A stretch of DNA of 64,000 nt from Alphaproteobacteria bacterium (GTDB taxonomy: Bacteria; Pseudomonadota; Alphaproteobacteria; UBA828), in the NCBI GenBank assembly GCA_965214705.1, contig CBDCCI010000002.1, positions 384,001 to 448,000 on the forward strand, in the 5' to 3' direction. Each line of letters starts with the position of its first letter. Positions within the stretch are counted from its first letter, which is position 1. The notes beneath the pieces are model-generated. The model did not search any database. It was not told the DNA's origin and saw only the letters and a list, made by a program, of their open reading frames with translations. Positions 12,724 to 52,400 of the stretch are shown in pieces. The position numbers and the translations under genes were made by a program.

Positions 12724-15071
12724 CTCTCAACTACCCACTGTTGAGTCAGTTCCATGTTTGATCATGTCCAGGTCCTTCAAGGCACGGTAGGTGAGGGTGG
12801 CGTGTCGCAGGTAGACGTAGCCCTTCCAGAGCAGTTGGGTTCCCGGCAGGGGCTGCCGTTTTCGTGGATCGAAGCCGGCGAACCTGGCGACATCGATGAC
12901 GAAGGTGCGGATGTCCGGGGGCTTGTCGGGCGGCGGACGGGCGCGAACCATGCCGTAGGCCATCAGCCTGATGTAGAGGATGGCGATTTCGTCGTCCGAG
13001 ACGACGTGGTTGGCCGGGGTGTCCGGCTTGTCGCGCGCGATGCGTTCGAGATCGAAGACGTGGCAGGCGGTGATGGCATCGAAGGCGACACACTTTCGCA
13101 GGTCGTCGGCGTGGTCGAGCTTTCGGTCCTCGACGCGGGTGCCGGTCTTCAGAACCTTGAAGTACTCCTCGATGGTCCATCGGCGCTCGTACCAGGTGAC
13201 GACGGTCTGGGCGGTCTCGGCGTCGGCGCTGCCCTCGGTGCTCAGCAGCAGCCAGTTGAGCGGGTCCTTGCCGGCGGGCGGGTCGGGTTCGGTCGCGGAC
13301 ACGACGAGCATGTCGACCGGCTCCCGGCTCTCGGCGTCGCGCGGTGGCGCCAGACTGACCCTGGCGGCGCGCAGCTCCAGCGTTGCCGTGCGCCTGGACC
13401 GCGCCCGCTTGCCGCCGCAGGCGCCGATCTCCACGGTCTTGCCGGCAAGGCGCGGGAGAGCGGCGACATGCTCCCACACGCTCTCCTCCTCGCCGCTCTC
13501 AAGGATCACCCGCCGCTGTGCCGACCGGCGCGCGCGCACCAGCAGCGCCGCGCCTTGCGATGCGGCCCTGGTGAGCAACGCCCAGATGTCGCCCTCCCGG
13601 TCGCAGACCGTGACCACCCGCGTCGCAGGGCAGGCGCGGGCCAACTCCTGCGCCCGCTCGTGCCCGCGCAGCCAGCGTTCACTCTCGATTTCCCTGTCGT
13701 CGCCGTCGCGGAAGCTCGCATCAAGGGCGAACACGCCGAGCGGCCGCCCGGCCGCGTTGAGCGCCAGACCCACATGCGCCACCAGTCCGCACGTGCCCTT
13801 GCCGCCGCCGCCCACCCCGACGAGGCCTTCGGTCGCTTTGAGCCCGTCGTAGTTCAGCGTGGTGGTGTCCTGGATCGCGAGAACGATGTCCTCAAGCTGG
13901 CAGCGCTCCACCATCGTTGCCCGGTGCGGCTCCAGGATGTGCTCCATGCTCACCTTCCCGCTCGACAGCAGCCGGTAGGCCGCCTTGCGCTCCGGCCGGG
14001 CCGGAAAGATCGCCGGGATCGCGGCCCCCGGGCGCTCCAGCCACGCCCGTCCCATGCGCTCGATCCGATCGCGGACCCGGCCGTCAGGATGCGTGCTGCG
14101 CGCATATTCCCGCCCCGCCCAGTCCGTGTCCTCGTCCATGTGCAACGCCGGCGCCGCACGGATGTCCCGGGCCGGCTCGGCGCACAAGATGGCCTGCCAA
14201 TCCGCCGCCAGCGGCTTCATCCACACCGTCCGCGCCGCCCCGGCGGCGGACCCCGGCGGCTGGCCCGAGGTGTGCTGGGAACAGCACCGCCAGCCCGCCG
14301 CCCGGTAGCAGGTGCCGGCATGCTCGGGGCCGACATAGCTGTAGGCCAGGACCGGCCGCGCCCTGTAGGCCGTCTCCCAGTCCGCCGCCACGCGCCCGGC
14401 CGCCAGCTCCAGCACCCGCGAGGCCAGACCGTGGACGCGCACGCCGGGCAGAAGCAGGAAGCGATGGTTGTTGATCAGGAGCGGCAGGTTCAAAGCCCGC
14501 GCGTCCGCCGACCAGCCGATAAAGTCGTCGCGCGCCTTCTGGTGCCAGCTCGCGGCGCAAAACCCGATGCCGCCGAGGCGGCCGTGAAGCGAGGAACGCA
14601 CCCAGTAGCGCAGCTGCCCGCCCGGAGCCCGCGCCCAGCCTTGCGGGTGGTGCGTCGCAATCATCGCTTGCCACAGTTGCCGCTCGGCATCGCCGTCGAC
14701 CGGCTCCAGTGTCACCGAGCCCAGATCCGCAAGCCGGCAGCGAAGCGAAAGGTCGGGGTAGGCTTCGATGGGCGCACTCTCGCGACGCCCCCGGCCGAAC
14801 GCCGCCCGCGCCGCCGGCAGCGCGAGCCCGAGCTTGTCCGCCAGAACCGGCAGAGCCTTGCGCGCGGACGCAAGACAGTGCTCGCCCCGATCGCCGGTCC
14901 AGTCCTCAAGCGCGCAGAGATCGCGGGCAAGAGAACTGCGAGTGCGGCCCTCCTCCAGGACCGCCTTGCTCAACCACTCGATCGTGTCGGCGTGAAACTG
15001 GTGAAGGCCAACTTGCATGGCACGACATGTAGCCCACACCACTCATTGAGTCAACTGTGGACCGGTGTGAG
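12724..15071 (-). mobile_element. IS4-family (IS50/Tn5-like) element encoding a DUF4338-transposase fusion
   Basis: Imperfect 25-bp TIRs beginning CTC; 9-bp TSD CCGCCGGGC (12715-23, 15072-80). Confidence 0.9.
12727..15042 (-). CDS. DUF4338 (DruA-like) domain fused to a Tn5-type DDE transposase
   Basis: N-terminal HHPQG...RDDFIGW...NNHRFLLLP...GTCYRAAGW; C-terminal IQDTT, VCDREGD, YERRWTIEEYFKVLK. Confidence 0.85.
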   Translation of the reverse strand: MVWATCRAMQVGLHQFHADTIEWLSKAVLEEGRTRSSLARDLCALEDWTGDRGEHCLASARKALPVLADKLGLALPAARAAFGRGRRESAPIEAYPDLSLRCRLADLGSVTLEPVDGDAERQLWQAMIATHHPQGWARAPGGQLRYWVRSSLHGRLGGIGFCAASWHQKARDDFIGWSADARALNLPLLINNHRFLLLPGVRVHGLASRVLELAAGRVAADWETAYRARPVLAYSYVGPEHAGTCYRAAGWRCCSQHTSGQPPGSAAGAARTVWMKPLAADWQAILCAEPARDIRAAPALHMDEDTDWAGREYARSTHPDGRVRDRIERMGRAWLERPGAAIPAIFPARPERKAAYRLLSSGKVSMEHILEPHRATMVERCQLEDIVLAIQDTTTLNYDGLKATEGLVGVGGGGKGTCGLVAHVGLALNAAGRPLGVFALDASFRDGDDREIESERWLRGHERAQELARACPATRVVTVCDREGDIWALLTRAASQGAALLVRARRSAQRRVILESGEEESVWEHVAALPRLAGKTVEIGACGGKRARSRRTATLELRAARVSLAPPRDAESREPVDMLVVSATEPDPPAGKDPLNWLLLSTEGSADAETAQTVVTWYERRWTIEEYFKVLKTGTRVEDRKLDHADDLRKCVAFDAITACHVFDLERIARDKPDTPANHVVSDDEIAILYIRLMAYGMVRARPPPDKPPDIRTFVIDVARFAGFDPRKRQPLPGTQLLWKGYVYLRHATLTYRALKDLDMIKHGTDSTVGS

Positions 15072-15199
15072 CCGCCGGGCCGGACCCGGACCCCGAGGCC
15101 GCAGGTGCGGTCGTCCCAGACGGTGAACTCCCGTTCTCGCGGACGGAGACGTTCGACGGCGGCGTCGGTCAGCCGCATGCGTTCCCTGCCGGCCATCGA

Positions 15200-16324
15200 T
15201 CAGTTTCCTTCCAGCACGGCGCCGACGATTTCGGCGGCTTCCATCGTCATGGCGTCGCTGAGGTGCGTGTACTTGAGGGTCGTCTCCGGGCTGGCATGGC
15301 CGAGCAGCCGACCGATGGCGAGCACGGTCTCTCCCTCGCGCAGGGCGATGCTGGCATGGGTATGGCGGAGGTCGTGGAGACGAACGTCGTCCAGTTCCGC
15401 CTCGGCGCGCAGCTTCCACCAGAACCGGTCCAGCCAGTTGTTGCCCTGCGGGCCTGCCGTCCGGCACGAGGGGAACACCCAGCGGCCCTTTCGCTCCAGG
15501 GCGTCGAGAATGTTTCTGGCGGGCTCGGAGAGCCAGACGGTTCGGGGACCCGTCTTCGAGTCGCGGAGGAACAGGCGCCCCTCGCGGTAGTCGGACCAGC
15601 GCAGCGTCAGGATCTCGCCCTTCCGGCATCCGGTCAGCAGGAGGAGGCGCACGACCGCCACCTGCTCCGGATGCCGCCCCTCATGGGCCGCGAGTGTCGC
15701 CGACAAGCGGCGGATCTCATCGTCCGACAGGAAGCGCTCGCGCCCCTCGCGGCGGTAGCGCCGGATGCCCTTGCACGGGTTCGAGCCCTCGGGACGGAAG
15801 CCCATCGCCTCGGCCTCGCGCATGATGACGGAGAGCACCGGCATCGACCGGTCGGCGGCGACCGGGGTGGCGCGCAGCGAAGCGAACCAGTTGGCGATGT
15901 CCCGGCTGTCGATGTCGTCGACCTGCCGTCCCGCGAAGTGCGGCAGGATCTGGTTTCGCAGGTAGCCCCGGTTCACTGCCAGCGTTCCCGCCTTCCAGAT
16001 GCGGCTGCGGCGCTCGAACGCGGCCTCGGCAACGACCTCGAAGAGGGTCTCGGTGGGATCGCGTGGCGGGTTCTCCCCCAGACGGATCGCGGCGAGCATG
16101 GTCACGGCGCGCGATCGCGCCTCGCTGACATCCATGGTGGCGGTGTCACCTATGATTTTCCATACGCGCTCGCCGCGATGCTGGCAGTGGACGAAGAGGC
16201 GCTTGGCGCCCGAGGGCAGCACGCGGAGGCCGAACCCCCTTAGCTTGCCGTCGCGAATGTCGTATGCGGTCTTGCGGGGCTTGAGCGCGCGGATGCGGGC
16301 GTCGGTAAGGTCGGTTCTGGGCAT
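15200..16324 (-). CDS. Tyrosine recombinase 1 with arm-DNA-binding N-terminus
   Basis: LRGFGLRVLPSG; TGCRKGE, DSKTG, HDLRH, LLGH, TLKY. Confidence 0.92.
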   Translation of the reverse strand: MPRTDLTDARIRALKPRKTAYDIRDGKLRGFGLRVLPSGAKRLFVHCQHRGERVWKIIGDTATMDVSEARSRAVTMLAAIRLGENPPRDPTETLFEVVAEAAFERRSRIWKAGTLAVNRGYLRNQILPHFAGRQVDDIDSRDIANWFASLRATPVAADRSMPVLSVIMREAEAMGFRPEGSNPCKGIRRYRREGRERFLSDDEIRRLSATLAAHEGRHPEQVAVVRLLLLTGCRKGEILTLRWSDYREGRLFLRDSKTGPRTVWLSEPARNILDALERKGRWVFPSCRTAGPQGNNWLDRFWWKLRAEAELDDVRLHDLRHTHASIALREGETVLAIGRLLGHASPETTLKYTHLSDAMTMEAAEIVGAVLEGN

Positions 16325-16443
16325 TTCCCCTCTTCCGGTTTCGGTTGCAGCCAGGGAACCGGGAGTTGACGGATCCGTCCGGATGCAACAATGTGGAGGA
16401 GAGAAAACGACCCTTTGTCAGATATTTAGCACCGCAGGTGCGT

Positions 16444-17228
16444 GACGTGGTGTGGCCCTTGGCGTTTCGCTTGGTGCCGACATCGCAGGCTTTGGGCAGA
16501 TCGTCGAGCATCTGCGGCAGGGTCATGTCGAGCTGGCGCTCCACGCGGCGCTGCTCCTTGGGCCGCTCCTCACCCTTGCGCGGGCGACCGCGCTTGCGCT
16601 TCGGCTTCTCCTTCTTGCGTTTGCGCTGAGGCTTCTCGCGCGCCTCGACCGCCGTCGAATCGCGCGAGACATGCCCCACCAAGTGGTCGCCGAGGGTCTG
16701 CTTGATCAGCGCCTCGTGCAGGCGTGCGGGCAGGGCACTCTCGGAGAACTCGGCGAAGGCCCGTGAAAAGGTCGCCTCGCTCGGCACTTCTCCGGCATAG
16801 TTCCAGCCGCACAATCGGCGCAACGTCTTGTCGACCTCAAGGCGCTCGATCAGCGCGCGTGTCGTGGGTACGTCGAACACCGCCTTGGCGATGAAGGCGC
16901 GCGCCAGCGCCGCACGGTCCTCGACCGGCCGACCGGGCAGGCCATGAAAATGGGGAAGGAAGCTCTCGACCCGCGCAAACTCAAGCACAGTGACGAAGCG
17001 CCGATACCTCTCGCCGAGTGGCCCGAGCTCCTCCTCAAGCCACGGGAAGAGATCGCCTTGAAGGGAGTTCAAGAATCTGGTTAGTGTCTGTCCCAGCGAC
17101 ATGGGACCGCTCTCCCTGTCGATGTCTTCGGAAGCCCGACAGGAACAGAGAGCGGTCCCGATTCCCAGAACAATCTGCATCACATGGCGGCAAAATCCCG
17201 CTCAACGGCGGAATTCTGCAAGTGGCTC
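16444..17228 (-). mobile_element. Truncated copy of the IS1182/IS5-like element at 18041-19561
   Basis: Near-identical DNA; keeps one TIR (...GCAAGTGGCTC) and is cut at about 16444. Confidence 0.9.
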
Positions 17229-17441
17229 CGGCGTGGCGGAAAAACCGGACAGGTCGATGTAGGCGGGCAAGGTTTCCGCGTCCAGGACGCGGATCGTCCA
17301 ACCGGGATTGTGGTATTCCCAGGAGCGCAGGCAACGTTTCACCAGTTCCGGCGCGTTCTCCCGGCCCTGGAGCCAGAGTATCCAGATGGTCCGGGGGACA
17401 ACCGGCAGTGGCGCGGCGCATGTCGGCGTATGGTCAGCCAT
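17229..17441 (-). pseudogene. Capsular polysaccharide synthesis protein (GT32-like) 5' fragment
   Basis: PRTIWILWLQGRENAPELVKRCLRSWEYHNPGW, cut by IS. Confidence 0.75.
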
Positions 17442-18040
17442 GCGCCTGCACGACGGCCTCGACCGGCGCGCCGCTCACTGCCTGTCGCTCGGCCGCCGCC
17501 AGACCTCGGCCGCCGGCCGAGTCAGCGATGGGCCCTTGCCGCCGACGGATGCCGGTGACGCATTCGGGACGACCAAGGGCAAAATGCTTGTGGTCCTGCA
17601 TGCGAGAAATCATGGATCAAAGCGTGACCGCTGGGCAGCCACCGCGGCTCTCGATGAAACGCCGCGTTCCGTGCCGTTGGGCGTGCATGAAGCTCAGCCA
17701 CATTCGAGAACCGTCAGCCGCGCAACGCGGCAGAAACAGGAGGCTGTCTCGATGTTCCGGGAACAGACACCCCGGCCGGATCGTCAGGGCCGTCTTGAAG
17801 CCGGCTCTCCTGGCCAGAAAGGCTTCCCGCACTCCGCCGACGCCGTGGGGATAGGCGAAGTGGTCGACCGGACGCCCGCAGAGGTTCTCAAGGAAAGCTT
17901 TGTTAGAGTACATCTCTCGGTACGCTTCTTCTTCGCCGAGCCCCGTCAGTTCGGGGTGGCTGGTCGTGTGTCCGCCGATGGTCGCCAGGGGATGATCGGC
18001 GAGGGTGCACAATTGCTCCCGCGACAATCCGGTATCCTTC

Positions 18041-19561
18041 GAGCCACTTGCAAAACTCTCGGGCACGGTGCGTTCATCCCGGGAGTTCGATATGAGGGCA
18101 GCGGTTGGTCGAACGTAACGCGAACGATCGGTCGAATCGACGGTTCGACATGCCGCATGGCCACCGTCGGGGAGCCGATTTGTCGCGAGCGAGGGCCGTT
18201 GCGGTCACATTCGTGGCCCGGCGCCGGGATGCGGGCGCGGCTCTCCGTGCCCCCATCGAGGGAGGCGTATTCCGGCATGACAGGGACAGAACCGAAAGTG
18301 AGGTTCAAGTCAGAAGGCGCGCCAATTGGTCTACCGTCAGCGCCAGGATGCCGAACATCGCGTGGCAGTAGACTTTGGCATGGCCGCGCACGCGGACATG
18401 GCGTCCACCGCAGTTGTCCTTCAGCCCGCCATTGATGCGCTCGACGTTCGAGCGTTCGCTGTAACGGTCGTCCGCCGGGTGGCTGTGGCCGATACGGCGC
18501 CGCGCCTTGGCCTCCCGCGCCAAGTCCTCTTTGAAGCCCCTGTCCCGGGGATTGATGTCGATGATTGGAACGTGGCCCAACAGATAGCTGTGCCAGCCGA
18601 TCTCAGGCGCGTCGTAGGCTGAGTCCATGAGATCGTACAGATTGGTCACGCGTTCGGCGCTCATGGTCGCCAGCGGGATCGCGACCTGACTGTCGTGCAG
18701 CGAGGCAGACGTCAGGATGCAACTGACCGGGATGCCGCCATCGGCGGCATCGATGTGCAGCTTGTAGCCGATCCACGACGTGGTGTGGCCCTTGGCGTTT
18801 CGCTTGGTGCCGACATCGCAGGCTTTGGGCAGATCGTCGAGCATCTGCGGCAGGGTCATGTCGAGCTGGCGCTCCACGCGGCGCTGCTCCTTGGGCCGCT
18901 CCTCACCCTTGCGCGGGCGACCGCGCTTGCGCTTCGGCTTCTCCTTCTTGCGTTTGCGCTGAGGCTTCTCGCGCGCCTCGACCGCCGTCGAATCGCGCGA
19001 GACATGCCCCACCAAGTGGTCGCCGAGGGTCTGCTTGATCAGCGCCTCGTGCAGGCGTGCGGGCAGGGCACTCTCGGAGAACTCGGCGAAGGCCCGTGAA
19101 AAGGTCGCCTCGCTCGGCACTTCTCCGGCATAGTTCCAGCCGCACAATCGGCGCAACGTCTTGTCGACCTCAAGGCGCTCGATCAGCGCGCGTGTCGTGG
19201 GTACGTCGAACACCGCCTTGGCGATGAAGGCGCGCGCCAGCGCCGCACGGTCCTCGACCGGCCGACCGGGCAGGCCATGAAAATGGGGAAGGAAGCTCTC
19301 GACCCGCGCAAACTCAAGCACAGTGACGAAGCGCCGATACCTCTCGCCGAGTGGCCCGAGCTCCCCCTCAAGCCACGGGAAGAGATCGCCTTGAAGGGAG
19401 TTCAAGAATCTGGTTAGTGTCTGTCCCAGCGACATGGGACCGCTCTCCCTGTCGATGTCTTCGGAAGCCCGACAGGAACAGAGAGCGGTCCCGATTCCCA
19501 GAACAATCTGCATCACATGGCGGCAAAATCCCGCTCAACGGCGGAATTCTGCAAGTGGCTC
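18041..19561 (-). mobile_element. IS1182/IS5-like insertion sequence, complete
   Basis: TIR GAGCCACTTGCA; 4-bp TSD CTTC (18037-40, 19562-65). Confidence 0.88.
18305..19435 (-). CDS. DDE transposase
   Basis: PSEATFSRAF, SRDSTAVE, GYKLH, LMDSAYD, RSNVER. Confidence 0.88.
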   Translation of the reverse strand: MSLGQTLTRFLNSLQGDLFPWLEGELGPLGERYRRFVTVLEFARVESFLPHFHGLPGRPVEDRAALARAFIAKAVFDVPTTRALIERLEVDKTLRRLCGWNYAGEVPSEATFSRAFAEFSESALPARLHEALIKQTLGDHLVGHVSRDSTAVEAREKPQRKRKKEKPKRKRGRPRKGEERPKEQRRVERQLDMTLPQMLDDLPKACDVGTKRNAKGHTTSWIGYKLHIDAADGGIPVSCILTSASLHDSQVAIPLATMSAERVTNLYDLMDSAYDAPEIGWHSYLLGHVPIIDINPRDRGFKEDLAREAKARRRIGHSHPADDRYSERSNVERINGGLKDNCGGRHVRVRGHAKVYCHAMFGILALTVDQLARLLT

Positions 19562-20309
19562 CTTCGTCACTGCGCCCAGCGATACGCCGTAACGCTCGAA
19601 TACGTCGCGCAAGAGCGGAGCGTGTTGCCCGATGTCCGTTCCCACCCAAGCCGTCACGGCCGCGAGGGCAGCAGCCTTCTCTTTGGGCGATGCGGCGGTG
19701 AACCGTTTGTTCATGGGCGGCACATCCAACACGTCGTTCATCCGGAACAAATGCTCCAGGCCAAGCCACCACAGGTAGCCGCTGCCCTCGACCATATCCG
19801 TTGTGACGTACAACGAAAACGGTGCTTCGAACCGCTCCAGTACCGGCAAGCCATAGATGACGTTGTCGGCGTATCCGTCATCGAAGGTGATGACGACGAA
19901 GCGCCCCCGGGCGGAATCACGGCCCGCCTCCCCGATGCGCTCGACGGCGTCGTCCATGGAGACCACCGCGACGCCGGCCTTGCGCATCGACGTCAGCCAA
20001 GCCTGGAGAAATCCGGGTGTGACGCATAGCTCTCCATCCAGATGGGCCGAGACGCAGGGTACGACGCGGTGGAACATGAAGATCGAACCGATGCCGGCGT
20101 AACGGCAACCGATAGCGGCGGAGAGGCCGCTGCGATAGAGAATCTCCCAGGTAAGTCGAACGTTCAGGACGCCCATGCGGATCATGGCCATCAAGAGTAG
20201 TTGTGCGGCCTGGTCACCACGGCCGTCTCACCAGTCTGCAAACCGACATCTTGAGTCCCCGCCTGGTCGAGTAATCTGGCGAGATCTTCACCAGGCCGTC
20301 GACTCCTAG

Positions 20310-20428
20310 CGTCGTAACACCGTTTCACCAGTTCGGGTGCGTTCTCCCGGCCTTGGAGCCAGCGCATCCAGATCGTCCGGGGGACAACCGGCAGTGGCTC
20401 GGCACGCGTCGGCGTGCGGTCAGCCATG
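20310..20428 (-). pseudogene. Second 5' fragment of the capsular synthesis gene
   Basis: MADRTPTRAEPLPVVPRTIWMRWLQGRENAPELVKRC, homologous to 17330-17441. Confidence 0.65.
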
Positions 20429-31002: not shown

Positions 31003-31541
31003 GACCTAACCCTCTTGCGCAGGAAATATTGGTAGAGAATCTCACGCAACTTCTCGGCAGCGGAAAAGCCGAGCGGTGCACGGAATGCGAATGCGGTGAT
31101 CGCCGGCACGCTGCCCACGTACGCCAGCCGCCGGGCATTGAGCCTCAATATCGCGACCTCGGCCAGGAACCAGTCTCTCCCCCCGCGGCGCGCGGCCAAG
31201 GACCGGGCATCGGCTCTCAGCAGAGGCGCCCGGGAACCGAAAATACGCTTGCCGTGGATCAGCATCTTGATCCACAAGCAATAATCCTCCATCTCCGCCA
31301 TTCTCGTCGGATAGCCGCCGACAGCCAGAACGTCGTCAATTCGGAACGCGCAGCAATTGCCGTTTACAGGGTTGCGGAAAAAACTGTAGAGATTCCAGGG
31401 TCCAATAGTCCCGCTAGGCACGCGCTTGAGCAACTCCAATCCGTCCTCCTGACTTCGACGGTTGAGCCGAGTTTTCGCTGGAATCCCGGTTCGGGATTCC
31501 AGTAAAGACAATGGCTTAGAAGTTGCGGTGCGGTCAAGCCG
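30999..31541 (-). pseudogene. Glycosyltransferase C-terminal remnant
   Basis: RNPVN...VLAVGGY...EDYCLW...ARRGG; 5' part replaced by the IS pile. Confidence 0.6.
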
Positions 31542-33682
31542 CAGGGCGGATTTGTACTTCGGCTTTTGGCTAGGCCCTCCAGCGAGTTGCCTGACATAGT
31601 GGACTTGTTCCCTGTGTCCTGATATGAGTGCCGCGAGGCAGCCGTGGGGACGGGCAGGCGGTGGCGGTTCTATCGGAAGTGGCGGTCGACATCGTTGGGG
31701 CGGAGGACGAGGCCCGCTTCCGCGACGTGATGCAGACACACCACTACCTCGGCGCGGTGCCGGGGATGGGCGAGACCGTGCGCTATGTCGCGCACCATCG
31801 GGGGCGATGGCTGGCGTTGGCGGTCTTCTCGGCAGCGGCGCTGAAGTGCGGTGCGCGCGATCGCTGGATTGGCTGGGACCGCGGCCTTCAGTTCGGTCGT
31901 CTTCACCTGGTCACCAACAACTCGCGCTTCCTGATCCTGCCCGGCGGTCCGCGCAATCTCGGCTCGCGGGTGCTGTCTTTGTGCACGCGCCGTCTGGTGA
32001 GGGATTGGCCGATCCGCTTCGGTCACGACGTGCTGCTGGCGGAGACGTTCGTGGACCCGGCGCTCTTCCGGGGCACGGTCTACCGCGCGGCCAACTGGAT
32101 CGAGGTCGGGCGCACCCGCGGCTTCGCTCGCGGTGGGGCCGGCTACAGCGAGCACGCACGGCCCAAGCGCGTGTTCCTTCTTCCCCTGTCCCGCACCGCG
32201 CGGGCCCGGCTGCGGGCCGACGATCTCGACCCCCGTCTGCGACATGGAGTGCCGAAGATGACGCTCACCGCCGCACAGATGCGATCCCTCCCCGAGTTCT
32301 TCCAGGGCATCGACGATCCCCGCCGCCGCCAGGGCCGGCGCCATGCGCTGCCCACGGTACTGGCGCTCGCCGCCGCCGCGACGTTCTGTGGCATGCGCGG
32401 CTACAAGGCGATCAGCGAATGGGTCGACGACCTCAGTCCCAGGGTGCTGCAGCGCTTCCGCGTGCGCCGCCGCGACGGCCGGTACCGCCCGCCCAGCCTG
32501 TCGGCGATGCGCAGCCTGCTGATCCGCGTCGATCCGGTCCAGCTCGACGCCGCGCTCAGGGCTTGGCACGAGGCCCACGGCTCGGGCGACAGCGCGCTGG
32601 CCATCGACGGCAAGACCATCCGCGGCGCCATCGATGACGATGGCACGCAGGCTCATGTGCTCGGCATCATAGGCCACGACACCAAGGCGCCCTGGGGTCA
32701 AAAAAAGTCGGCATGAGGCCCGACGCCGACGAAGGGGAGAAGCGCACCAACGAGATCGGCACCATCATCCCCCTGCTCGAGACGGTGCCCGACATCGCGG
32801 GCCGCACCGTCACCGCCGATGCTCTGCTCACCCAGCGCGCGCTGGCCTCCTATCTGCGCGACCGCGGCGCCGACTATCTGTTCACCGTCAAGGGCAACCA
32901 GCCCACCTTGCTCGACGACATCCGGCTCACTCTCGACGAGGCCATCGCAGGCCGCGCGCCGGACTTCGCGGACGAGAGCCCCAAGCCCGAGCACGGCCGC
33001 CGCGAGCGGCGCTCCATCTGGGTCTCCAGCGAGCTCAACGACTACCTCAACTTCCCCGGCGTCGGACAGGTCTTCGCCGTGCGGCGCGAAACCCGGCACG
33101 TCAAATCCGGCAAGGAGCTGCGAGACGGCTTACGGCGTCACCAGCCTGAGTGCGCAGGCCGCATCGCCGGAACGCCTGCTCACCCTCAATCGCGGGCACT
33201 GGACCATCGAGGCGGCCCATCACATCCTCGACTGGAGCTTCGACGAGGACCGATGCCGTATCCGCTCGGGCTACGGTCCGGAGAACATGACCCTGCTGCG
33301 GCGCTTCGCCATCGGCGTCATCAAGGGGCGCGGGCTCGCTGTCGCCGAGACCATGCGCAATCTGGCCAGGAAACCGAGGCGGGTTCTCGACTTCCTGAAA
33401 ATGACCGACAACGTCGCTCCGCGGCCAGCGCCGGACTGACCCCCTCCCAGCCGTGCCCCTCGCCGCGACGCCAACCCTCGGAACGCCGGGGGCGAGCGGT
33501 CATGTTCAGATGAAGCCGTGCTCGACTCTCGCGGCCAAGGGCATCGCTATGCGGCGGCGCGATGGCAATGCGGCGGCGCGGCCAAATCCCGTGCCCAGCC
33601 CCCGCAAGGTCCCAAACGAAAGCGGATGGAGCATGATTCAGTGCCGTCAGCCAGCGGCGAAAATCAGAACGAATTTGCCGTG
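31542..33682 (+). mobile_element. ISAs1-family element with DUF4338 fusion
   Basis: Imperfect TIRs CAGGGCGGATTTGTACT / CACGGCAAATTCGTTCT; 9-bp TSD GTCAAGCCG (31533-41, 33683-91). Confidence 0.88.
31628..33439 (+). CDS. DUF4338-ISAs1 transposase; -1 frameshift signal at 32700-07 and a second frame break near 33115
   Basis: HHYLG, RDRWIGW, NNSRFLILP, ETFVDP; IDDPR, AIDGKT, TNEI, DALLTQ, VKGNQP, RGHWTIE, FDED across three frames. Confidence 0.8.
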
Positions 33683-33701
33683 GTCAAGCCGCTTTGTTGT
33701 G

Positions 33702-41539: not shown

Positions 41540-41584
41540 GGTGCGATCCTCGTTCAGGGACTCCCTGGCCCCGGGATCGTCACG

Positions 41585-42220: not shown

Positions 42221-42309
42221 CGGCCCTGGCCCGGCGGGAGTTGAGTCCCCCGGGCCTCTCTTTGCGGTTCAGTGAGAGGCCGAGATTACGGACGCTCCCC
42301 GGCGCCGCC

Positions 42310-44494: not shown

Positions 44495-44528
44495 GCTCGG
44501 AGAGAAGGCCAGCACCTTCTCTCCGAGC
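44495..44528 (+). promoter_or_regulatory. Perfect 14-bp hairpin upstream of the IS110 transposase
   Basis: GCTCGGAGAGAAGG-ccagca-CCTTCTCTCCGAGC. Confidence 0.55.
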
Positions 44529-44554
44529 GGAATCGTCAACAACGGAGTGGACGG

Positions 44555-45751: not shown

Positions 45752-45789
45752 GGACAGCAGCCGAACGAACAGGAGAATACAGGAGGTTC

Positions 45790-46020
45790 CGACGTGGTCG
45801 GACGCGGCCGCGGAGGATGCCGGGCAAGGCGTGTGACCGGGCAAGAGTTGGGTCGCCGCTTGGCACCGTTCTACAGATGGGTCCCGCCTCCCGGAACGTC
45901 GTTACCGCTTGGATGCGGTATTGGGGTCACGGAGCCGGCAAGCGCCGGAGTTCCGAACCGGATAAGAGCTGAGCAGCGTGACGAATCGCTGCGTGGGAAG
46001 GACGTTCTGCCTGGCCATCA
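45790..46020 (+). ncRNA. Candidate bridge/seek RNA of IS110 element A (ends approximate)
   Basis: Target match at 45838-51; donor matches at 45917-22 and 45962-68; scaffold shared with two sibling ends. Confidence 0.75.
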
Positions 46021-46446
46021 ACCGCGGACTCGAAGGGGAGAACAGGAATGCCATTGACGTAGATGAAGCCGGGCCTTGCGGAGAGAGCTCATAAGAACTC
46101 TTGCCCGTGCCGCACGGTCCGGTGATCAGGATGTTGGCGCCGTTGCGGACCCAGGCGCAGTCTGCGAGGCCGAGCACGAGACTGCGGTCGAGGCCGCGCG
46201 GACGGCTCAGGTTGATATCCTCGAAGCAGGCGTCCTGATGGCGCAGCTGCGCCCTCTTGAGGCGCCGCTGCAGGGCCCTGGAGCGGCGCTCGGCGATCTC
46301 GCGATCGATCAGCAGCGCGAGCCGATCCTCGAAGGGCATGTCGTCGAGGTCGTTGCGCGCCACCTGCTCGAGGAAGGCGGCGTGCATGCCTGGCAGGCGC
46401 AGCGAGGCGATGCGCTCGGCCAGCGGGTGGGAGACGGGGTTTTCGG

Positions 46447-47979
46447 TCATCGGTAGGCCTCCGGTCCTCTGATGTTGGAATGATCGATGGGCATGGTCTC
46501 GGGTTCCTGCTCGGCGGCGGCGCGGTCGGCGCCGGTGCGCAGGATGTTCTCGAGCCCGCGGTAGCTCCGCGTGCCGAGCTCGAGCGCGTAGCGGCAGGCG
46601 CCGTCGAAGCGGTCCTGCTCGTAGCTCTTGGCCAGCCGGAGGACGCCGTAGCAGGCACGGAAGCCGAACTCCGGATTGTTCTGCCGCTTCATGAGCGCGA
46701 CGATGTAGGCGTGGACATGGGGCCCGATATCGCGCGCGTTCTTCTCCAGCTGGGCGCGGGTGGCCTCGACGCCGGCGCGTTGGTGCGCCTTCGGTTTGTG
46801 CTCTTCGACGGTGGTGGCGCGGCCCCTGGCTGAGCTGCGGATATGGCTGGCGACGTGCCGGCCCCGGAGGAAGACGTCGATCAGGTTGTCGCGCAGGCGG
46901 ACGTCGACCTCCTTGCCGATGAGCTCGTGGGGCACCGAGTAGAAGTGGTAATCGATGGCGATGTGATAATCGCGGTGGACCGTGTTCTTGCGCCACACGG
47001 TGTGCTGCCAGCGCCGTTCCGGCAGCGGCTTCATGTGGGGGCGGTCGACGCTCTCGAAGCGGCCGTAGCGGTTCTCGCCGGTGCCGTCGGCATAGGGCCG
47101 GCTGTTGATCTTCCTGACCTGGGCGGCGATCGCGCGGTTGGCCGATGGCAGATCATGGAAGACGCGCTTGCGCAGGGGCGCGAGAATCCAGCGCTCGCCC
47201 TGGAGCACGCCGTTCTCGACCAGGGCTTTGTCGCGCGGCTTCTTCACGCGCGCCGGGAAGCCCTGAACGTCATAGTGTTCGAGCAGATCGGCGTAGGTCT
47301 CGTTGAGGACCGGCTCGTAGCGCGAGGGCTTGATCACCGCCGGCTTGATGTTGTCGGGCACCACGACCTGCGGCACGCAGCCCATATCCTTGAAGCAGCG
47401 CACGTGCGAGGCGCACCAGTCCTCGATCTTCTGGCTGAGCGTCGCCTCGGCGTAGAGCCGCCCCGAGACGCCCATCGAGGCTACGAACACCTGCGCCTCG
47501 TGCTCGGCCCCGTCGATCATGATCGGGATCGTCATGCCGGCGTAATCGACGAACAGCCTCTCGCCGGGACGGCGGTTCTGGCGCATCGTCGCGTCCCGGC
47601 GCGGCCGCCACTCCCGGAAGCGGCGGCACCAGGTCGGATAGCTCATGCCGCCGGGATGGGTCTCGCGCCATTCCTCCCACAGCAGTTTCAGGGTCACGCC
47701 CTGCTCGGACAGGTCCGTCTCGACCTTCGCCCAGTCCACCTCCTGCTGCGGCGCGGCTTGCGTGGGCGCCGGAAACAGCGCCGCCTCCAGCGCCTCCTCG
47801 GCCATGTCGCCGGCTTCCGGCCAACTCAACCCGGACGCCGCGAACCGCTCCAGGACCGACGCCACCGAGCGTCGCGCCATACCGCAGTGGGTTGCGATCA
47901 CGCGGGCGCTGCGTCCCTCCTCGAAATGGAAACCAAGAACCTTCTTCACCTTTCTCATCGGCAACCTTCCCCGTGCCAT
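46447..47979 (-). CDS. istA: IS21 transposase IstA
   Basis: PGERLFVDYAG, VVPDN, PRDKALVENGV, HFYSVPH. Confidence 0.93.
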   Translation of the reverse strand: MARGRLPMRKVKKVLGFHFEEGRSARVIATHCGMARRSVASVLERFAASGLSWPEAGDMAEEALEAALFPAPTQAAPQQEVDWAKVETDLSEQGVTLKLLWEEWRETHPGGMSYPTWCRRFREWRPRRDATMRQNRRPGERLFVDYAGMTIPIMIDGAEHEAQVFVASMGVSGRLYAEATLSQKIEDWCASHVRCFKDMGCVPQVVVPDNIKPAVIKPSRYEPVLNETYADLLEHYDVQGFPARVKKPRDKALVENGVLQGERWILAPLRKRVFHDLPSANRAIAAQVRKINSRPYADGTGENRYGRFESVDRPHMKPLPERRWQHTVWRKNTVHRDYHIAIDYHFYSVPHELIGKEVDVRLRDNLIDVFLRGRHVASHIRSSARGRATTVEEHKPKAHQRAGVEATRAQLEKNARDIGPHVHAYIVALMKRQNNPEFGFRACYGVLRLAKSYEQDRFDGACRYALELGTRSYRGLENILRTGADRAAAEQEPETMPIDHSNIRGPEAYR

Positions 47980-48542
47980 CCCAGCCCCCCTCGGATGAGT
48001 CGCGAAATCCGACGGGTAGGACGGCGCTCTGAGTCGCACCAAAAGCCGCCGCCCCGAGGGGGTGGCTACTTTCGGTGAGACCGGGTGGCTACTTTCGGTG
48101 AGATTCGGCGGCTACTTTGCCTGAGATTGGGTGGCTACTTTCGTGAAATTCGGCACGTCCGCCAGATCCCTCGCCAGCGTCCCGCCCACGCGAGCCGGGC
48201 GCCACCCGACGGGTGCCCGAACACGGGTCGCAGCCGTGGGTAATCCCTTCGCTTCAGCTTCGTGCGTCCGCGCCGTCCCGATGGCGAGCCAGATGACCCG
48301 TGCGCAATCTCACTCGCGGCCGAAGCCGTCCCGCCGGCTCAGGGCGATCTCCCCAATTCCTGTGACCATGGGCGTCGCGACGCTGGCGGAAACAGCAGCG
48401 TCGACCATAGGCATCCCGCCAATCGTCCCTTCGTAAGCGCGCCACCAGTGCACTTTCCACATACCGGCCACCCGAGCTCGGGGGCCCGCGGCTTCGTTCA
48501 ACCAGGTTGAGCAGGCTCTGGCGAACCTGCTCAACCCTAAAG

Positions 48543-48623
48543 ATTATGCCGACAACGCTTGAGAAAAAGCCCGGGGATTCAATGCCCCGGGCTGCAAACG
48601 CGGCATAACCCTATTGTCGGCAT
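48543..48623. repeat. Short palindromic segment resembling a RIT-element end
   Basis: TTATGCCG...CGGCATAA; ATGCCGACAA/TTGTCGGCAT IR; internal GCCCGGGG hairpin; truncates the DUF4338 ORF. Confidence 0.4.
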
Positions 48624-49231
48624 GGCGCGAGTTGTTGGCGATCAGATGCAGGCGCCGGAACTGCTGCTCCGCCGACCACCCGATCCAGCGATCCCGCGCG
48701 CCCAGCTTGAACGCGCCAGGCTGCCAGCCGATCAGTGCGAGCCAAGTCTCGCCGTGCACCGCGACATGGCGCAGGCCCTTGCCGATGACGCCGTGGAACG
48801 CCAGATAGTGGTGCTCCTCAACCAGCCGGTCCCAGCGCCGGTGCTCCTGCGCGCCCCAGGTCGGGCGCACCGTGACCGCGCGCAGATCAATGGACGAATC
48901 CAGAACCGGCAGCGTCGCCATGAGCGGCACACTGCCACATCGAGAACAGAATGGTCAGCCCCGACTTCAGCTCAACCTGCTCGACCGGCGGACAATAAAT
49001 GCGCCCTGCGATCGACCGCGAGGTCCTGGCGTCAACACGAGCCTCGATACGACCTCAGCCAACTGTCCAGTCGCCGTTCAGCTTGCGATCTTCCCCTCGC
49101 CGCGGGGAGGGGGACCCGGTCTGGCCAAACGTCACGCAGCCGCCTGCCGCCAGGAACGCCACTACTTTGTCATCCACCGACGCGCCGCCATTGCAGCGCG
49201 CCAAGTCATCGTTCTTCATCGTCACCCCGTG
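48624..49231 (-). pseudogene. DUF4338/ISAs1-type element 5' remnant
   Basis: EHHYL...RDRWIGW...LIANNSR, then cut; leader homologous to 51690-51790. Confidence 0.7.
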
Positions 49232-49237
49232 GTGTTC

Positions 49238-49996
49238 TCACGTCGCGTCGAAGCGATAGCCAAAAGCATCAATCATCTTGTCGCAGAGCCTGGCGACATA
49301 TTCTCTCGACCAGTTGGAGTAGTAGTCGCGATGGTCGTCACACTTCTTTCTGGACTCATTCTTCGTTCTCGGCAGGGATTCCAGTGGCAATTTCAACAGC
49401 CGGCATACATGGTTGAAGTCGTGCTGCAGGTTCTCGTAACGAATATAGTAGTCCGCGTACTCGAGCCCGTCGATAAAGTAGAAATCCGGGATTTCCGAGA
49501 TATATGGAAACATCTCCGTCTTCAGAACAAGTTCGACACTCTTCCTGGGGTGGCCGCTTATGAAGCCGCGCCGCGCCTGGCGTCGCAGCAGGCTCCGGCG
49601 CACATCACGCAGACTGCGGACGCGGAGCAGATTCGAGCCGGGGATGTCCGGCCAATTGGGACCGAACTTCCAGTGGAGGAAAGACACGATCAGGTCCCAC
49701 GGGTTTCTGATCGTGGTGAACTTGAAATATTCGTTCCAAATGTCCGTGCCTACCTTCTCCCGGATCGTGCCGGGCAGGTAGTGCCCGTGGAGCTGATCTA
49801 CCGTGTCCGTAAAGGCCTCCGTATTTTTCTCCGACATGACGCCGAAGTTGTCGGTGTCCACGCCGGGACGGAATACCTCACCGCCGGAGATCACGTCCTC
49901 ATGCCCACACGAGCGGGATAACGAGATTTGGACGCTGCCGCTAGCGACCTTCCGTGGACGCACGAATATGTATCTGTGCTTGTGAGATATGATCAC
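49238..49996 (-). CDS. Sulfotransferase family 2 protein
   Basis: MIISHKHRYIFV..RKVASGS, FTTIRNPWD, IRYENL..DF, FGYRF. Confidence 0.85.
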   Translation of the reverse strand: MIISHKHRYIFVRPRKVASGSVQISLSRSCGHEDVISGGEVFRPGVDTDNFGVMSEKNTEAFTDTVDQLHGHYLPGTIREKVGTDIWNEYFKFTTIRNPWDLIVSFLHWKFGPNWPDIPGSNLLRVRSLRDVRRSLLRRQARRGFISGHPRKSVELVLKTEMFPYISEIPDFYFIDGLEYADYYIRYENLQHDFNHVCRLLKLPLESLPRTKNESRKKCDDHRDYYSNWSREYVARLCDKMIDAFGYRFDAT

Positions 49997-51531
49997 AGCA
50001 GCCTCTCTGGCCGAACCGCCCGCAATCGGCTAACCACCGACCGCCAAACCGAACGGCGGAGCTGTTTCAGGAGCGACCATGCTTCCGCGGGGCTGTGGAT
50101 GTCCTGTACTCTGTCAAGCAGGCGGCTCCATCTGGTGGCTTGTCCCGTGGCTGTCGCAGAGATGTGATCCACATCATCCAGCGGCTCCGCGAGCCTGATC
50201 TTCAGCTTGGCGGCGGATACCGTCACCAAATCGCCGAAATCCGAGGGCTTGCCGCCGATACGGCGCGCGCGGTGGAGTGCCCACGTCCGGGTAATCGACA
50301 CCTCAGACCCATCCGGGAGTCTCGATACCCCGGCGACCGCGTCTGAAAGTGCTGCGCGCAAACGATGCACGAGCCCCTTGGCGAACACCGCGGCGGCGGG
50401 AATCCTGACGTGGAACGAAGTAGTGGGGAACTCGTCAAGCGCGTTGCCGGCGGTGGCGACGCGTACGCGCGGGTCCGAACCGAACTCGTACTCGATCCAT
50501 GCCTGTCGATCATCATCATCGCACTCAAGCGTTTCGATTCTCACCACGAGGTCATGCACGCGATCGGCCAGGATGGTCCCGACGGACCTGATGACTTGAC
50601 CGGCCGGATGATGTCCCGCTTCGATGGTCACCACGGTCTGTGGAACCGTGAAGATTCGCCTGAGCCTCTCCTTGCGATAGCTGTCGTGGGCAATGAGGTG
50701 AGCCGCCTTGCTGCGCAGTATTCCGCGAATCCTTCGCTTGAAGTCTCGGTTCTCCTCCCACGTGCCCTGATGCCAGGTCGAGGCATCACGAAGCGGCACC
50801 AGCAGTCCACCTTGGGTATAAGCGCGATAGCCGAGTTCGGTGTCATCCACTCCCACACCAAAGCGCATGAACGATTCGTCGCTCCCGCCCAGCAACCAGT
50901 AGAAATCCTTGCGGATACCGAGGTTTCCACCGATCGTCACCTTGAACAGATCGTCAGCTTTCGACGTCAGATCGTTGGTTTCGACCAAGTAGTCTTCGAC
51001 CCAGGGCACGTGTACCGAGCGGTCCGAAAACAGTTCCTTCAAAGGCCCCGATCGGTACCGGATCGTCTCCACGTCGACGTCGTCCACCACCACATGGTTG
51101 TGGAATCCGAGCGTCAGAGCGTCGGAGAGGACGTGGTGCCACCTGGCGTGCGCCGAAATCCAGTCCGTCTCGACGAGCACATCGTTGTCGAGAAAGAGGA
51201 GGATGTCATAAGCGGCCGACCGGACGCCGGTGTTGCGCGCCCTGGCAAGCCCGAACCCGCGCCGAGCTTGGCGCACCACCTTGATGTTCAAGCAGGTTGA
51301 GTGAGGACTCGCGAGCGGAGGCTCCGACCCGTCGTCGACGATCACCACCTCAAAGAGACCCCGCGGGTACGTCTGACCTTCCAGCGACGCCAAGGTTTTC
51401 GCTATCTCGGCGGGAGCTTGGTAGTAGGGAATGATCACGCTGACAGGTCGAGTGGGTGTGAATGCCTCCAGCGCCGGCACGTCCACTTGGCGCCAGTCGT
51501 TGTAGCGTACGGATGCGGCTTCTGGCTTCAT
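49993..51531 (-). CDS. Family 2 glycosyltransferase (third paralog)
   Basis: SVRYNDWRQV, VDDGS, FLDND, DTELGYR. Confidence 0.88.
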   Translation of the reverse strand: MKPEAASVRYNDWRQVDVPALEAFTPTRPVSVIIPYYQAPAEIAKTLASLEGQTYPRGLFEVVIVDDGSEPPLASPHSTCLNIKVVRQARRGFGLARARNTGVRSAAYDILLFLDNDVLVETDWISAHARWHHVLSDALTLGFHNHVVVDDVDVETIRYRSGPLKELFSDRSVHVPWVEDYLVETNDLTSKADDLFKVTIGGNLGIRKDFYWLLGGSDESFMRFGVGVDDTELGYRAYTQGGLLVPLRDASTWHQGTWEENRDFKRRIRGILRSKAAHLIAHDSYRKERLRRIFTVPQTVVTIEAGHHPAGQVIRSVGTILADRVHDLVVRIETLECDDDDRQAWIEYEFGSDPRVRVATAGNALDEFPTTSFHVRIPAAAVFAKGLVHRLRAALSDAVAGVSRLPDGSEVSITRTWALHRARRIGGKPSDFGDLVTVSAAKLKIRLAEPLDDVDHISATATGQATRWSRLLDRVQDIHSPAEAWSLLKQLRRSVWRSVVSRLRAVRPERLL

Positions 51532-51621
51532 CCTTTGTTCCGCACCTATCCGGTTAGCCAAGGCAAATTTGTCAAAGCCTGATTTTTGAGTTCTGCGCTA
51601 TCAGTTGACCTTGGGTCTGGT

Positions 51622-52400
51622 CAGAGCGCGCCAACCCTCAAGACTCGTTTTTCGTCCGCCCGCCATGTGGCGTGAGGTGATCACCAAGCTGACCATTTCA
51701 TTCTCGATGTGGCAGTGTGCCGATCATGGCGACGCTGCCGGGCCTGGGTTCATCCATTGATCTGCGCGCGGTCACGGTGCGCCCGACTTGGCGCGCGCGG
51801 GAGCACCGGCGCTGGGACGAGCTGGTGGCCGAGCACCACTACCTGCGGTTCCACGGTGTCGTCGGCAAGGGGCTGCGCCATGTCGCGGTACATGGGTATC
51901 CCGTCCATCTAGCGGAGACCTTCGTGGATGTCTTGCGCTTTGCCGGCACATGCTATCGCGCGTCGAACCGGCGCTCGCTGGGGCTGACGCGCGGCTTCCG
52001 AGACGAAAACCGCTGCCGGGCCTACGTGCGCCACCTGCCGCGTGATCTCTGCTGCCGGACCAACGCGGCCATCGCCATCGTGCGCTGCGACGGGCGCTTC
52101 CGCTTCCTGCCCGAGGCCAACCGCCACTATGCCGCCCGCGCCCATGAGGCCCTCGACGCGATCCTGATCGCGCCCGCCGCACGATCCCGTCGGCGTAACC
52201 GCGCAGCACAGTGCACCAGGACGCGCCGTCGAGTGGCGCGGCGGGATAGCCATGCCCGACGAGCCCGAAACAGGCATCCTGCCGCTCAGGGCCGAACCCA
52301 TGTAGCCGTCCAGCCAAACACCGGCAGGGCCCAGATTAGCCCGAGCCTGTCCGCTTCCGTCATCCCGATCCCTCAGCCGCGATTAAGAGATGTTCCTGTG
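51622..52400 (+). mobile_element. Internally deleted DUF4338-ISAs1 derivative (ends approximate)
   Basis: EHHYL...ETFVD...GLTRGF joined directly to the ISAs1 tail RDENRCR. Confidence 0.65.

Follow-up and report, generated by a model that had tools for sequence, protein, structure and literature searches.

We have analysed a stretch of 64,000 nucleotides from an alphaproteobacterium of the UBA828 lineage (GenBank assembly GCA_965214705.1, contig CBDCCI010000002.1, G000:C3:384001-448000; hereafter the window) and find that it carries insertion sequences (IS) in which a DruA-like domain (DUF4338, PF14236) is joined to transposases of the Tn5 and ISAs1 types. The interpretation that we favour, and which we hold with about even confidence, is that these are IS lineages in which the DruA-like domain has been built into the transposition machinery and is kept there by selection, being neither a passenger gene nor a piece of a Druantia system, and that the DNA of the element itself, or its transpososome, is probably where it acts. 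Three arrangements are present in the genome: a winged helix-turn-helix (wHTH) and a GNAT-fold domain ahead of a Tn5 transposase, a GNAT-fold domain ahead of the helix-turn-helix (HTH) and DDE parts of an ISAs1 transposase (in one open reading frame, ORF, or split), and a wHTH-GNAT gene coupled to an IS66 transposase gene. Since each of the three either tethers the domain to a protein which binds the element ends or has it produced along with such a protein, the domain should act locally. Tn5, ISAs1 and IS66 transposases are normally seen as proteins composed of DNA-binding and DDE catalytic parts.

The shared domain is indeed the one named in the original prediction on this DNA: the Pfam DruA model matches the Tn5 fusion with E 4.8e-22 (78.9 bits, amino acids, aa, 112-233) and the first ISAs1 reading frame, ORF1, with E 1.8e-21 (77.0 bits), the gathering cut-off of PF14236 being 27 bits. 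In the whole genome (7.92 Mb in three contigs, C1 to C3, with about 67% G+C), DruA-like places number 58 by tblastn and 55 by the Pfam hidden Markov model, 54 of them above the cut-off, and thus the domain call is not a matter of chance.

In the Tn5/IS50-like element the domain lies, as had been predicted, N-terminal to a Tn5/IS50-type transposase within a single ORF (12727-15042). Pfam finds in succession DruA, Tnp_DNA_bind, DDE_Tnp_1 and Dimer_Tnp_Tn5, the protein scores 298.9 bits against the NCBIfam IS4 model NF033590 (cut-off 160), and a profile of 48 homologues of the fusion matches residues 6-468 of 477 of the Tn5 transposase 1mus (E 2.2e-61); the same profile gives no PDB sequence match for the first ~290 residues, Tn5 transposase being the only match. 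As the full-length Tn5 match occurs only beyond about residue 290, the fusion consists of an extra N-terminal module ahead of a complete Tn5-type transposase. An identical database protein has 763 aa, which makes the Met at 15018 the probable start. The ends of the element, which an inverted-repeat search missed, were set from copy boundaries and from two empty paralogous sites (C3:459490-459545 and C1:434820-434875); they are imperfect inverted repeats of ~25 bp, and 9-bp duplications are also found at other copies. The genome holds eight copies, namely that of the window, six full-length ones (four in C1 and two in C3, 93.5-100% identity) and one that a further insertion has interrupted. The full-length transposase homology, the DDE motifs DTT, DREGD and WTIEE, almost invariant among the 48 sequences, the 9-bp target-site duplication (TSD) and the terminal inverted repeats (TIRs) are those of the Tn5/IS50 type of the IS4 family. 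The C-terminal ~470 aa align with the whole Tn5 transposase; unlike Tn5 and IS50, the fusion adds a module of ~290 aa and the element reaches 2.35 kb. The sequence which hosts the element (12000-12723 and 15072-15999) is itself a repeat, with at least four uninterrupted copies at 92-96% identity (for example C3:458798-460439 and C1:433923-435564).

The second arrangement is that of an ISAs1-like element, here type A. It had been described as one fused gene at 31628-33439, with TIRs and a 9-bp TSD of its own, as for the Tn5 type. The DruA-like domain does stand ahead of an ISAs1 transposase, but not in one ORF, since ORF1 stops at 32716 and the coding continues in the -1 frame with a further 2-nt deletion near 33112; likewise, imperfect TIRs bound both elements and the 9 bp hold for the Tn5 type, whereas the window ISAs1 copy is flanked by a direct repeat of 10-11 bp (31532-31542 / 33682-33692). 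Calling the two transposase families unrelated was also too strong, as IS4 and ISAs1 transposases both match DDE_Tnp_1, even if they constitute separate IS families. Type A has seven copies or fragments in the genome (94-98% identity); two copies other than that of the window, located by an end-motif search, have direct repeats of 9 bp and 10-11 bp, and empty sites are found at C3:1728510-1728570 and C1:2841540-2841600. ORF1 alone, being partial, scores only 38.7 bits with the NCBIfam ISAs1 model NF033564, whose cut-off is 70. All the ISAs1 domains are present in an intact protein of the related type D (see below) and, in pieces, in the window copy, together with TIRs and direct repeats. The lineage shares with the ISAs1 family the DDE_Tnp_1_assoc HTH, the DDE_Tnp_1 core, short TIRs and direct repeats of 9-11 bp, and differs from it by an extra N-terminal GNAT domain of ~200 aa, giving a transposase of ~600 aa and an element of 2.1-2.2 kb. 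Taken together, the copy numbers, identities, TSDs and empty sites of these elements indicate recent and repeated transposition.

ISAs1 elements are usually described with a single ORF, and the split form seen here likely reflects a programmed -1 frameshift, in type A as well as in the related type B. In the alignment of the five full-length type A copies (two partial ones being omitted) the heptamer A_AAA_AAG is present in four, the fifth having eight A's through a substitution. Type B, with which type A shares 65% amino-acid identity, has at the homologous place (window 32701-32707; locus L081 ~1430-1436) the 0-frame heptamer A_AAA_AAC, a stop codon two codons on and a -1 frame of 247 codons, in 19 of the 19 copies analysed, a count that omits one 5'-truncated and one diverged copy. 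Both heptamers conform to X_XXY_YYZ with the downstream ORF in the -1 frame, as programmed -1 frameshifting demands of a sequence, and such heptamers are those of IS3-family elements, dnaX and IS1. Moreover, five database representatives from other 50% clusters stop at the same point, right after Lys-Lys, and one single-ORF member of 613 aa reads straight through as a -1 shift predicts. Type B, present in 20 genome copies with 99-99.9% identity, has transposed about 20 times recently in the split-ORF form, and a blastn search of the element against the genome gave no close single-ORF relative. RNA folding downstream of the two heptamers is no better than that of shuffled sequences (z 0.58 and -0.25). 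Transcriptional slippage is the alternative to ribosomal slippage, and a systematic miscall of the A run keeps a small residual likelihood. The window copy has in addition the 2-nt deletion already mentioned, which none of the other four full-length copies shares, and therefore its transposase gene is broken and the copy defective.

The arrangement resembles the OrfA/OrfAB organisation of IS3- and IS1-type elements in its heptamer, in an upstream frame that encodes DNA binding and in a full transposase that would be formed only after a -1 shift; it differs in that the upstream product also bears a GNAT domain and the first catalytic Asp region, and in that no significant RNA structure follows. 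In lineages bearing the frameshift the main product would be the unshifted GNAT + HTH protein with no complete DDE core, which may behave as a regulator, like OrfA of IS3-type elements. We have also noted a second recurrent end of ISAs1-DruA proteins at ~440-465 aa, right after a conserved F-(S/P)-P-S (P0252, P0260, P0225, P0254, P0187, P0228, P0223, P0219), which could mark one more frameshift site that they share, or else be an artefact of gene calling.

It could be argued that chance similarity, mis-assembled repeats or sequencing errors mimic both the fusions and the frameshifts. The assembly is repeat-rich, 60% of the window having counterparts of at least 85% identity elsewhere in the genome, stretches such as the seven A's are notorious for homopolymer miscalls, and the single-ORF form of 613 aa belongs to the same 90% cluster as forms of 350 aa. 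We regard this explanation as extremely improbable, given that the same fusions recur in hundreds of independent assemblies, that clusters with the split ORF1 include members from several Logan and ENA assemblies, and that the heptamers of both types fit the slippery pattern with a stop two codons downstream.

The third arrangement extends the recurrent capture by transposases, as proposed in the original prediction, to an IS66-family element elsewhere in the genome. The stop codon of the transposase gene (PF03050, E 9.8e-53 and 1.5e-54) overlaps, as ATGA, the start of a stand-alone gene of ~293 aa, whose wHTH + DruA-like product matches Pfam DruA with E 1.1e-37. In the best-defined subgroup the element has 3454 bp, TIRs of 220 bp, GTAA...TTAC ends and 8-bp TSDs (two seen), such ends and duplications being typical of IS66, and the DruA-like gene lies within the terminal repeats, its 3' end being inside the right one. 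No tnpA- or tnpB-like ORFs were seen in the element. ORFs of 1170-1260 aa with a C-terminal DruA, which we had considered as large fusions, were rejected, as their N-terminal parts are an off-frame reading of the IS66 transposase gene.

The association is not restricted to this genome. The original prediction turned on the fusions being conserved in homologues, and this is what the databases return. The Tn5 fusion has 349 database relatives (E<=1e-3), named 'IS4 family transposase' by their sources, and PF14236 is present in 118 of the best 120 (50-100% identity, mostly 740-790 aa, 97-99% coverage), the two exceptions being truncated forms; for the intact ISAs1 fusion there are 1805 proteins, named 'ISAs1 family transposase', and PF14236 is found in 114 of the best 120, the six exceptions again being truncated. 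In named species-representative genomes 207 relatives of the Tn5 fusion were confirmed and 80 loci kept, these being multi-copy and matching residues 9-742 or more; the labels of the metagenome-assembled genomes comprise Rhodobacterales, Thalassobaculaceae, Paracoccaceae, Alphaproteobacteria, Arenicellales and Gammaproteobacteria. Among 72,556 plasmid records, 639 have a Tn5-like match and none covers at least 80% of the Tn5 fusion. PF14236 was matched in 20 of 300 further genomes sampled from the phylum, and the 28 loci of these 20, when compared by tblastn with the partner proteins of the present genome, were Tn5-like (2), ISAs1-like (5), IS66-like (1), canonical-DruA-like (5) or without assignment (15).

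A profile built from eight domains of the genome retrieves 10,386 clusters (50% identity) at E<=1e-3 and 1,990 at E<=1e-30. Pfam models were run on the best 130 cluster representatives (20 of the 150 returned were left out for size): all 130 have DruA, 56 DDE_Tnp_1_assoc, 20 DDE_Tnp_1, nine Mom, three Tnp_DNA_bind and two DDE_Tnp_IS66. Single representatives join the DruA-like domain to a D12 N6-adenine DNA methyltransferase, to IstB_IS21, to a Mutator-family transposase and to DUF2201 / VWA-like domains; IstB_IS21 and the Mutator-family case thus widen the recurrent capture further, each in one protein.

The unrooted tree comprises 163 domains (155 of 160 database candidates, those with adequate profile coverage, and eight from the genome). 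A single branch with 99% support (SH-like approximate likelihood ratio test) separates 95 rows, which include 66 of the 67 ISAs1-labelled ones and 29 unlabelled, mostly short proteins, from 68 rows, which include all 14 Tn5 and all eight IS66 rows and stand-alone forms of ~295 aa. The comparison of the domain phylogeny with the transposase partner, already envisaged in the original prediction, thus places the ISAs1 association apart from those with Tn5 and IS66, which fits separate old associations. The window's Tn5 lineage forms a clade of 11 rows (100%) on a long stem (0.77), and a second small Tn5-fused group falls outside it. The partner label changes 33 times on the tree against a mean of 68.6 in shuffled labels, and this distribution indicates that the domain diversified along with its transposase partner.

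A different scenario is that of a cargo for defence or counter-defence, which would shield host or element DNA from restriction or phages and whose link to transposases would be mere hitch-hiking. The family is named for a Druantia component, and a type I Druantia system that looks complete is indeed present in the genome, far outside the window; also Mom, an anti-restriction function, is carried by a transposable phage (accessible text of PMC13219725 and PMC7261163). The canonical DruA of this system (398 aa) scores 275.7 bits with Pfam (model positions 3-295) and 648.8 bits with the PADLOC DruA model, whereas the IS-linked domains score 13.3, 14.8 and 18.9 bits with the PADLOC DruA models, type D giving no match. 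Two further ORFs, which lie between the Dru genes of this locus (822 aa and a 264/379-aa region), are without a PADLOC match and may be divergent DruB and DruC. The IS-linked domains share with canonical DruA the Pfam family and the core LRY...RD..IGWS, and hhalign aligns them with 87.5% probability (E 3.6e-6); unlike canonical DruA, which matches the whole Pfam model, they cover only model positions ~50-230 and have no Druantia neighbours. IS sequence surrounds the DruA-like genes of the window, DruD and DruE turned up solely beside the canonical DruA, and DruB-E adjoin none of the IS copies examined. By these comparisons the IS-linked domains are distant PF14236 members and not Druantia proteins. 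In-frame fusion to the transposase in two lineages, translational coupling in the third and diversification of the domain together with its partner further argue against a cargo, as does the fact that an IS has no free DNA stage in need of protection. The defence role suggested in the original prediction is therefore not upheld by the PADLOC scores, and we consider it very unlikely.

We have used structure models to address the nature of the domain. The AlphaFold2 model of aa 1-300 of the Tn5 fusion (m9f7329ab34ce; pLDDT 90.2) has a helical part (aa 9-71) which a disordered linker joins to an alpha/beta domain (aa 104-286), and among its 65 Foldseek matches in the PDB at E<=1e-3 those listed are all GNAT proteins (SpeG, RimI, NAT10). 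The winged-helix-like sub-domain is kept in 47 homologues, and a comparable N-terminal extension of ~100 aa is found on the stand-alone relatives of ~295 aa. The model of aa 1-200 of the ISAs1-type ORF1 (pLDDT 94.7) has 174 PDB matches at E<=1e-3, those listed being GNAT-fold, and its closest solved structure is Mom of phage Mu (8bv8_B), rank 1 of 824 PDB matches with E 5.3e-9, TM scores of 0.64/0.63 and 17% identity; the next one, AAC(6')-Ib with 5e-7, is a hundred-fold weaker. As judged from these models the IS-linked domain has a GNAT fold, which agrees with the GNAT or Mom-like fold that the original prediction had offered as a check. Among viral models in BFVD, the best matches of the Tn5-type model are uncharacterised proteins of Faunusvirus, a giant virus, with 299 aligned columns over both sub-domains, and of haloarchaeal tailed viruses (19-20% identity); a wHTH+GNAT module may also occur in viruses.

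Other lines of evidence also point to Mom. Pfam Mom (PF25680) matches 9 of the 130 family representatives at E<=1e-3 (best E 1.9e-8), and 24 of the 30 nearest named ESM-Atlas clusters, once PF14236 is excluded, are Mom clusters (top score 0.90); on ORF1 itself the Mom model gives 18.5 bits (E 0.0017), below the cut-off of 27.1. Profile-sequence comparison was dropped as proof of the link, being not significant, and the link thus rests on structure, Pfam cross-hits and Atlas features. Mom shares with the ISAs1-type domain the GNAT fold and a home on an element of the DDE-transposon type. The differences concern the identity (16-17% only), the Pfam Mom scores of the window proteins, under the cut-off, the HTH, which in the IS-linked proteins comes from a neighbouring domain before or after the GNAT domain instead of from an HTH-like insertion, and the form of the protein, Mom being free and expressed late by the phage whereas the IS-linked domain is fused or coupled to a transposase. 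According to the accessible text of PMC13219725, Mom uses Gly-tRNA(Gly) to aminoacylate adenine in double-stranded DNA, with active-site residues H58, Y59, R111, S124, D149, R151 and Y159. A weak, collinear hhalign alignment (E 0.032) sets H58, Y59, S124, D149 and Y159, i.e. five of these seven residues, on conserved H, Y, S, D and Y of the ISAs1, IS66-linked and stand-alone clades. The polar set H, Y, R-D, N-x-R, S, D/E and Y is at least 90% conserved in these three clades and in the second Tn5-fused group, and a conserved loop that contains Gly/Ala and links strand 4 to helix 3 (R-V-H-G-L-A-S-R or P-N-L-G/A-S-R) is presumably the place where GNATs bind the pyrophosphate of coenzyme A (CoA).

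The conservation of the Mom-aligned residues in the ISAs1 and IS66 lineages favours a transferase there, and in these two lineages the domain might be an active Mom-like enzyme marking DNA at or near the element ends or, less likely, a protein of the transpososome, a proposal that we hold tentatively and with clearly less confidence than the general interpretation. The group transferred would be acyl or aminoacyl, its acceptor being DNA at the IS ends or close to them or, less probably, a bound protein, and the DNA mark could gate transposase binding, tune end recognition or copy number, or protect the DNA. The gating of IS10 and IS50 by Dam methylation offers an analogy for such marking of ends. 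In the window's Tn5 lineage, where three of the residues are replaced and constraint is kept, the domain may now serve as a regulatory or DNA-binding module.

A number of observations weigh against this interpretation, and several of them concern the relationship to Mom. The hhalign comparison with the single Mom sequence is non-significant (E 0.013 and 0.032, probability 3.3% and 1.6%), so that the residue equivalences rest on an alignment with weak statistics; R111 and R151, essential in Mom, have no secure counterpart in it. The HTH-like insertion of Mom (~175-209), on which its activity depends, has no evident counterpart in the model of aa 1-200, where beta strands are seen at 158-186 and no insertion of a helix pair, and Mom is not among the PDB matches listed for the Tn5-type model. 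The consensus of the window's Tn5 clade (112 sequences) has HP for HY and 'ytyvg' for ETFVD and is without the Arg of the RF motif; in the same weak alignment it thus lacks the Y, the D and a nearby R that correspond to the Mom active site. The best structural matches after Mom are acetyl-CoA-dependent enzymes acting on amines or proteins, which leaves room for a protein or small-molecule substrate. As for the census, it leans to IS-linked forms because the profile was built from the IS-linked domains of this genome, and 77 of 150 representatives showed no partner; the tree comes from a quick IQ-TREE search under LG+G4 with no mixture model. Finally, the ratios of nonsynonymous to synonymous substitution rates, 0.18-0.26 for the type A DruA domain and, between two Tn5-type copies of the genome, 0.26 over the GNAT domain as against 0.29 over the transposase, rest on only 10-24 substitutions per segment.

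These ratios indicate that the GNAT domain of the window's Tn5 lineage is still under constraint despite its remodelled active site, and it is in this lineage that a non-catalytic role is most plausible. The domain would then be an exapted module for DNA binding, multimerisation or auto-inhibition, with an effect on cis/trans action or on the control of synapsis; as an account of the family as a whole we find it rather unlikely. The Tn5 lineage, with its long stem, replaces three Mom-aligned positions and yet remains constrained, and in the Tn5 architecture the module directly precedes the end-binding domain. The second Tn5-fused group retains the canonical motifs, as do other members, and therefore the window's Tn5-type domain is a derived form; the highly conserved polar set elsewhere in the family is a pattern typical of enzymes. 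Also, the IS66 form is a separate protein, and there a simple action as an intramolecular domain does not apply.

A further possibility, which we likewise rate as improbable, is a conventional acetyl-CoA-dependent N-acetyltransferase that modifies the transposase, a nucleoid protein of the HU, IHF or H-NS type or a polyamine, thereby tying transposition to the metabolic state. It would account for the conserved G/A-S-R at the presumed CoA-pyrophosphate site and for the structural matches listed other than Mom, which are all CoA-dependent GNATs (SpeG, RimI, AAC(6')-Ib, Naa60). On the other hand, Mom, which works with aminoacyl-tRNA and on DNA (PMC13219725, accessible text), is the nearest relative by structure, Pfam cross-hits and language-model features, and the other contexts of the family are DNA-centred, namely Druantia, DndF (PMC10853773, accessible text) and the one D12 adenine methyltransferase fusion (1/130).

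The window holds in addition two remnants, which the original prediction placed at 48624-49231 and 51622-52400. Both exist, with coordinates that become 48626-49008 (-) and 51687-52213 (+), and sequence comparison assigns both to a third DruA-ISAs1 lineage, type D, one member of which keeps all three domains in a single intact ORF of 610 codons. The first remnant matches Pfam DruA with E 2.1e-11 (44 bits, model positions 46-136), and the second consists of a left end (51687-51895), a piece (51908-51997) and a right end (52002-52213), tblastn locating the C-terminal piece of DruA at 51894-51998. Altogether, ISAs1 types A, B, C, D and E of the genome carry the DruA-like domain; a type C ORF of 645 aa, first taken as intact, was rejected on account of a mutational frameshift near its C-terminus. 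In a 5'-truncated DruA-ISAs1 copy (G000:C3:1309075-1311126, locus L085) a tandem T-R-D-T repeat is expanded just past the second catalytic Asp region. The segment 49009-51686, of lower G+C (0.615), is enclosed by the type D remnants, each with its left end turned toward the segment, and resembles a composite-transposon-like or rearranged arrangement. One more transposase ORF (46447-48042, -) is found within a region present about seven times in the genome. The coordinates of all features are collected in the table.

Table. Features of the window and related loci of the genome (positions without a contig prefix are those of the window).
Feature	Position	Strand	Basis and remarks
Tn5/IS50-like IS, 2348 bp, nested in another repeated element	12724-15071	-	copy boundaries and empty sites
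TSD of the Tn5-type IS, 9 bp	left 12715-12723, right 15072-15080		gapless flank junction at empty paralogous sites
Fusion ORF, 771 aa from GTG: wHTH + GNAT + complete Tn5-type transposase	12727-15042	-	Pfam
Helical, winged-helix-like N-terminal sub-domain, aa 9-71	14830-15018	-	AlphaFold2 model, pLDDT 83-97 there
DruA-like (PF14236) GNAT-fold domain of Tn5 type, aa 101-290, predicted	14173-14742	-	derived lineage; Foldseek and clade consensus (112 sequences)
ISAs1-like IS 'type A' with N-terminal DruA-like domain, defective copy	31543-33681	+	copy boundaries and empty sites
ORF1, 362 aa: DruA-like GNAT (aa ~18-200) + ISAs1 HTH DDE_Tnp_1_assoc (aa 223-313) + start of DDE core	31628-32716	+	Pfam
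Slippery heptamer A_AAA_AAG, 0 frame; putative -1 frameshift or transcriptional slippage site	32701-32707	+	ORF1 stop two codons on
Rest of ISAs1 transposase	32706-33439	+	-1 frame to ~33112, then back in ORF1 frame; tblastn with intact type D protein
PF22483 (Mu-transposase C-terminal domain) ORF	46447-48042	-	E 1.4e-17; weak HTH_23 match
Remnant 1: 5' end of type D DruA-ISAs1 element, cut within DruA domain	48626-49008	-	98.7% identity to C1:3365972-3366354
Sulfotransferase	49238-49996	-	segment between type D remnants
Family 2 glycosyltransferase	49993-51561	-	segment between type D remnants
Remnant 2: type D element with internal deletion	51687-52213	+	blastn against type D copies, 85-89% identity
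IS66-family element with DruA-like gene	G000:C2:530538-533991; also C3:~79.8-83.3 kb, C2:~448.3-451.7 kb		diverged copies at loci L086 and L087
Type I Druantia locus, complete-looking (locus L095)	G000:C3:1256127-1268360		canonical DruA + DruD (E 1.5e-129) + DruE (2029 bits), PADLOC

The domain family, its assignment as a GNAT domain, including its fusion to DndF (accessible text of PMC10853773), and the IS families are already known, and public annotation gives the proteins plain transposase names. A literature search, most subscription journals lying outside its scope, returned in the text accessible no paper on PF14236- or GNAT-transposase fusions or on their closeness to Mom, and no account of ISAs1 elements that use frameshifting. 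Most of the fusions stem from uncultured lineages, and none of the plasmid records with a Tn5-like match covers the Tn5 fusion, which may explain that no papers were found.

A conserved, enzyme-like domain hard-wired to large IS lineages implies an unrecognised step in the control or protection of transposition, and the likely -1 frameshift would place an ISAs1 lineage among the families using control of the OrfA/OrfAB type. The long-unexplained DruA family gains a concrete biochemical lead, Mom being the closest solved structure. A broader view, speculative and in our opinion doubtful, would have PF14236 proteins as Mom-type nucleic-acid transferases whose main home is insertion sequences; brought to the element ends by the transposase or its HTH, they would write there a covalent base mark, possibly tRNA-dependent, through which the transposon itself would encode an epigenetic switch governing the recognition of its ends, its copy number or immunity, Druantia DruA being related to them by recruitment or by shared origin. 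If this were true, type I Druantia would work via a Mom-like DNA mark or via its detection.

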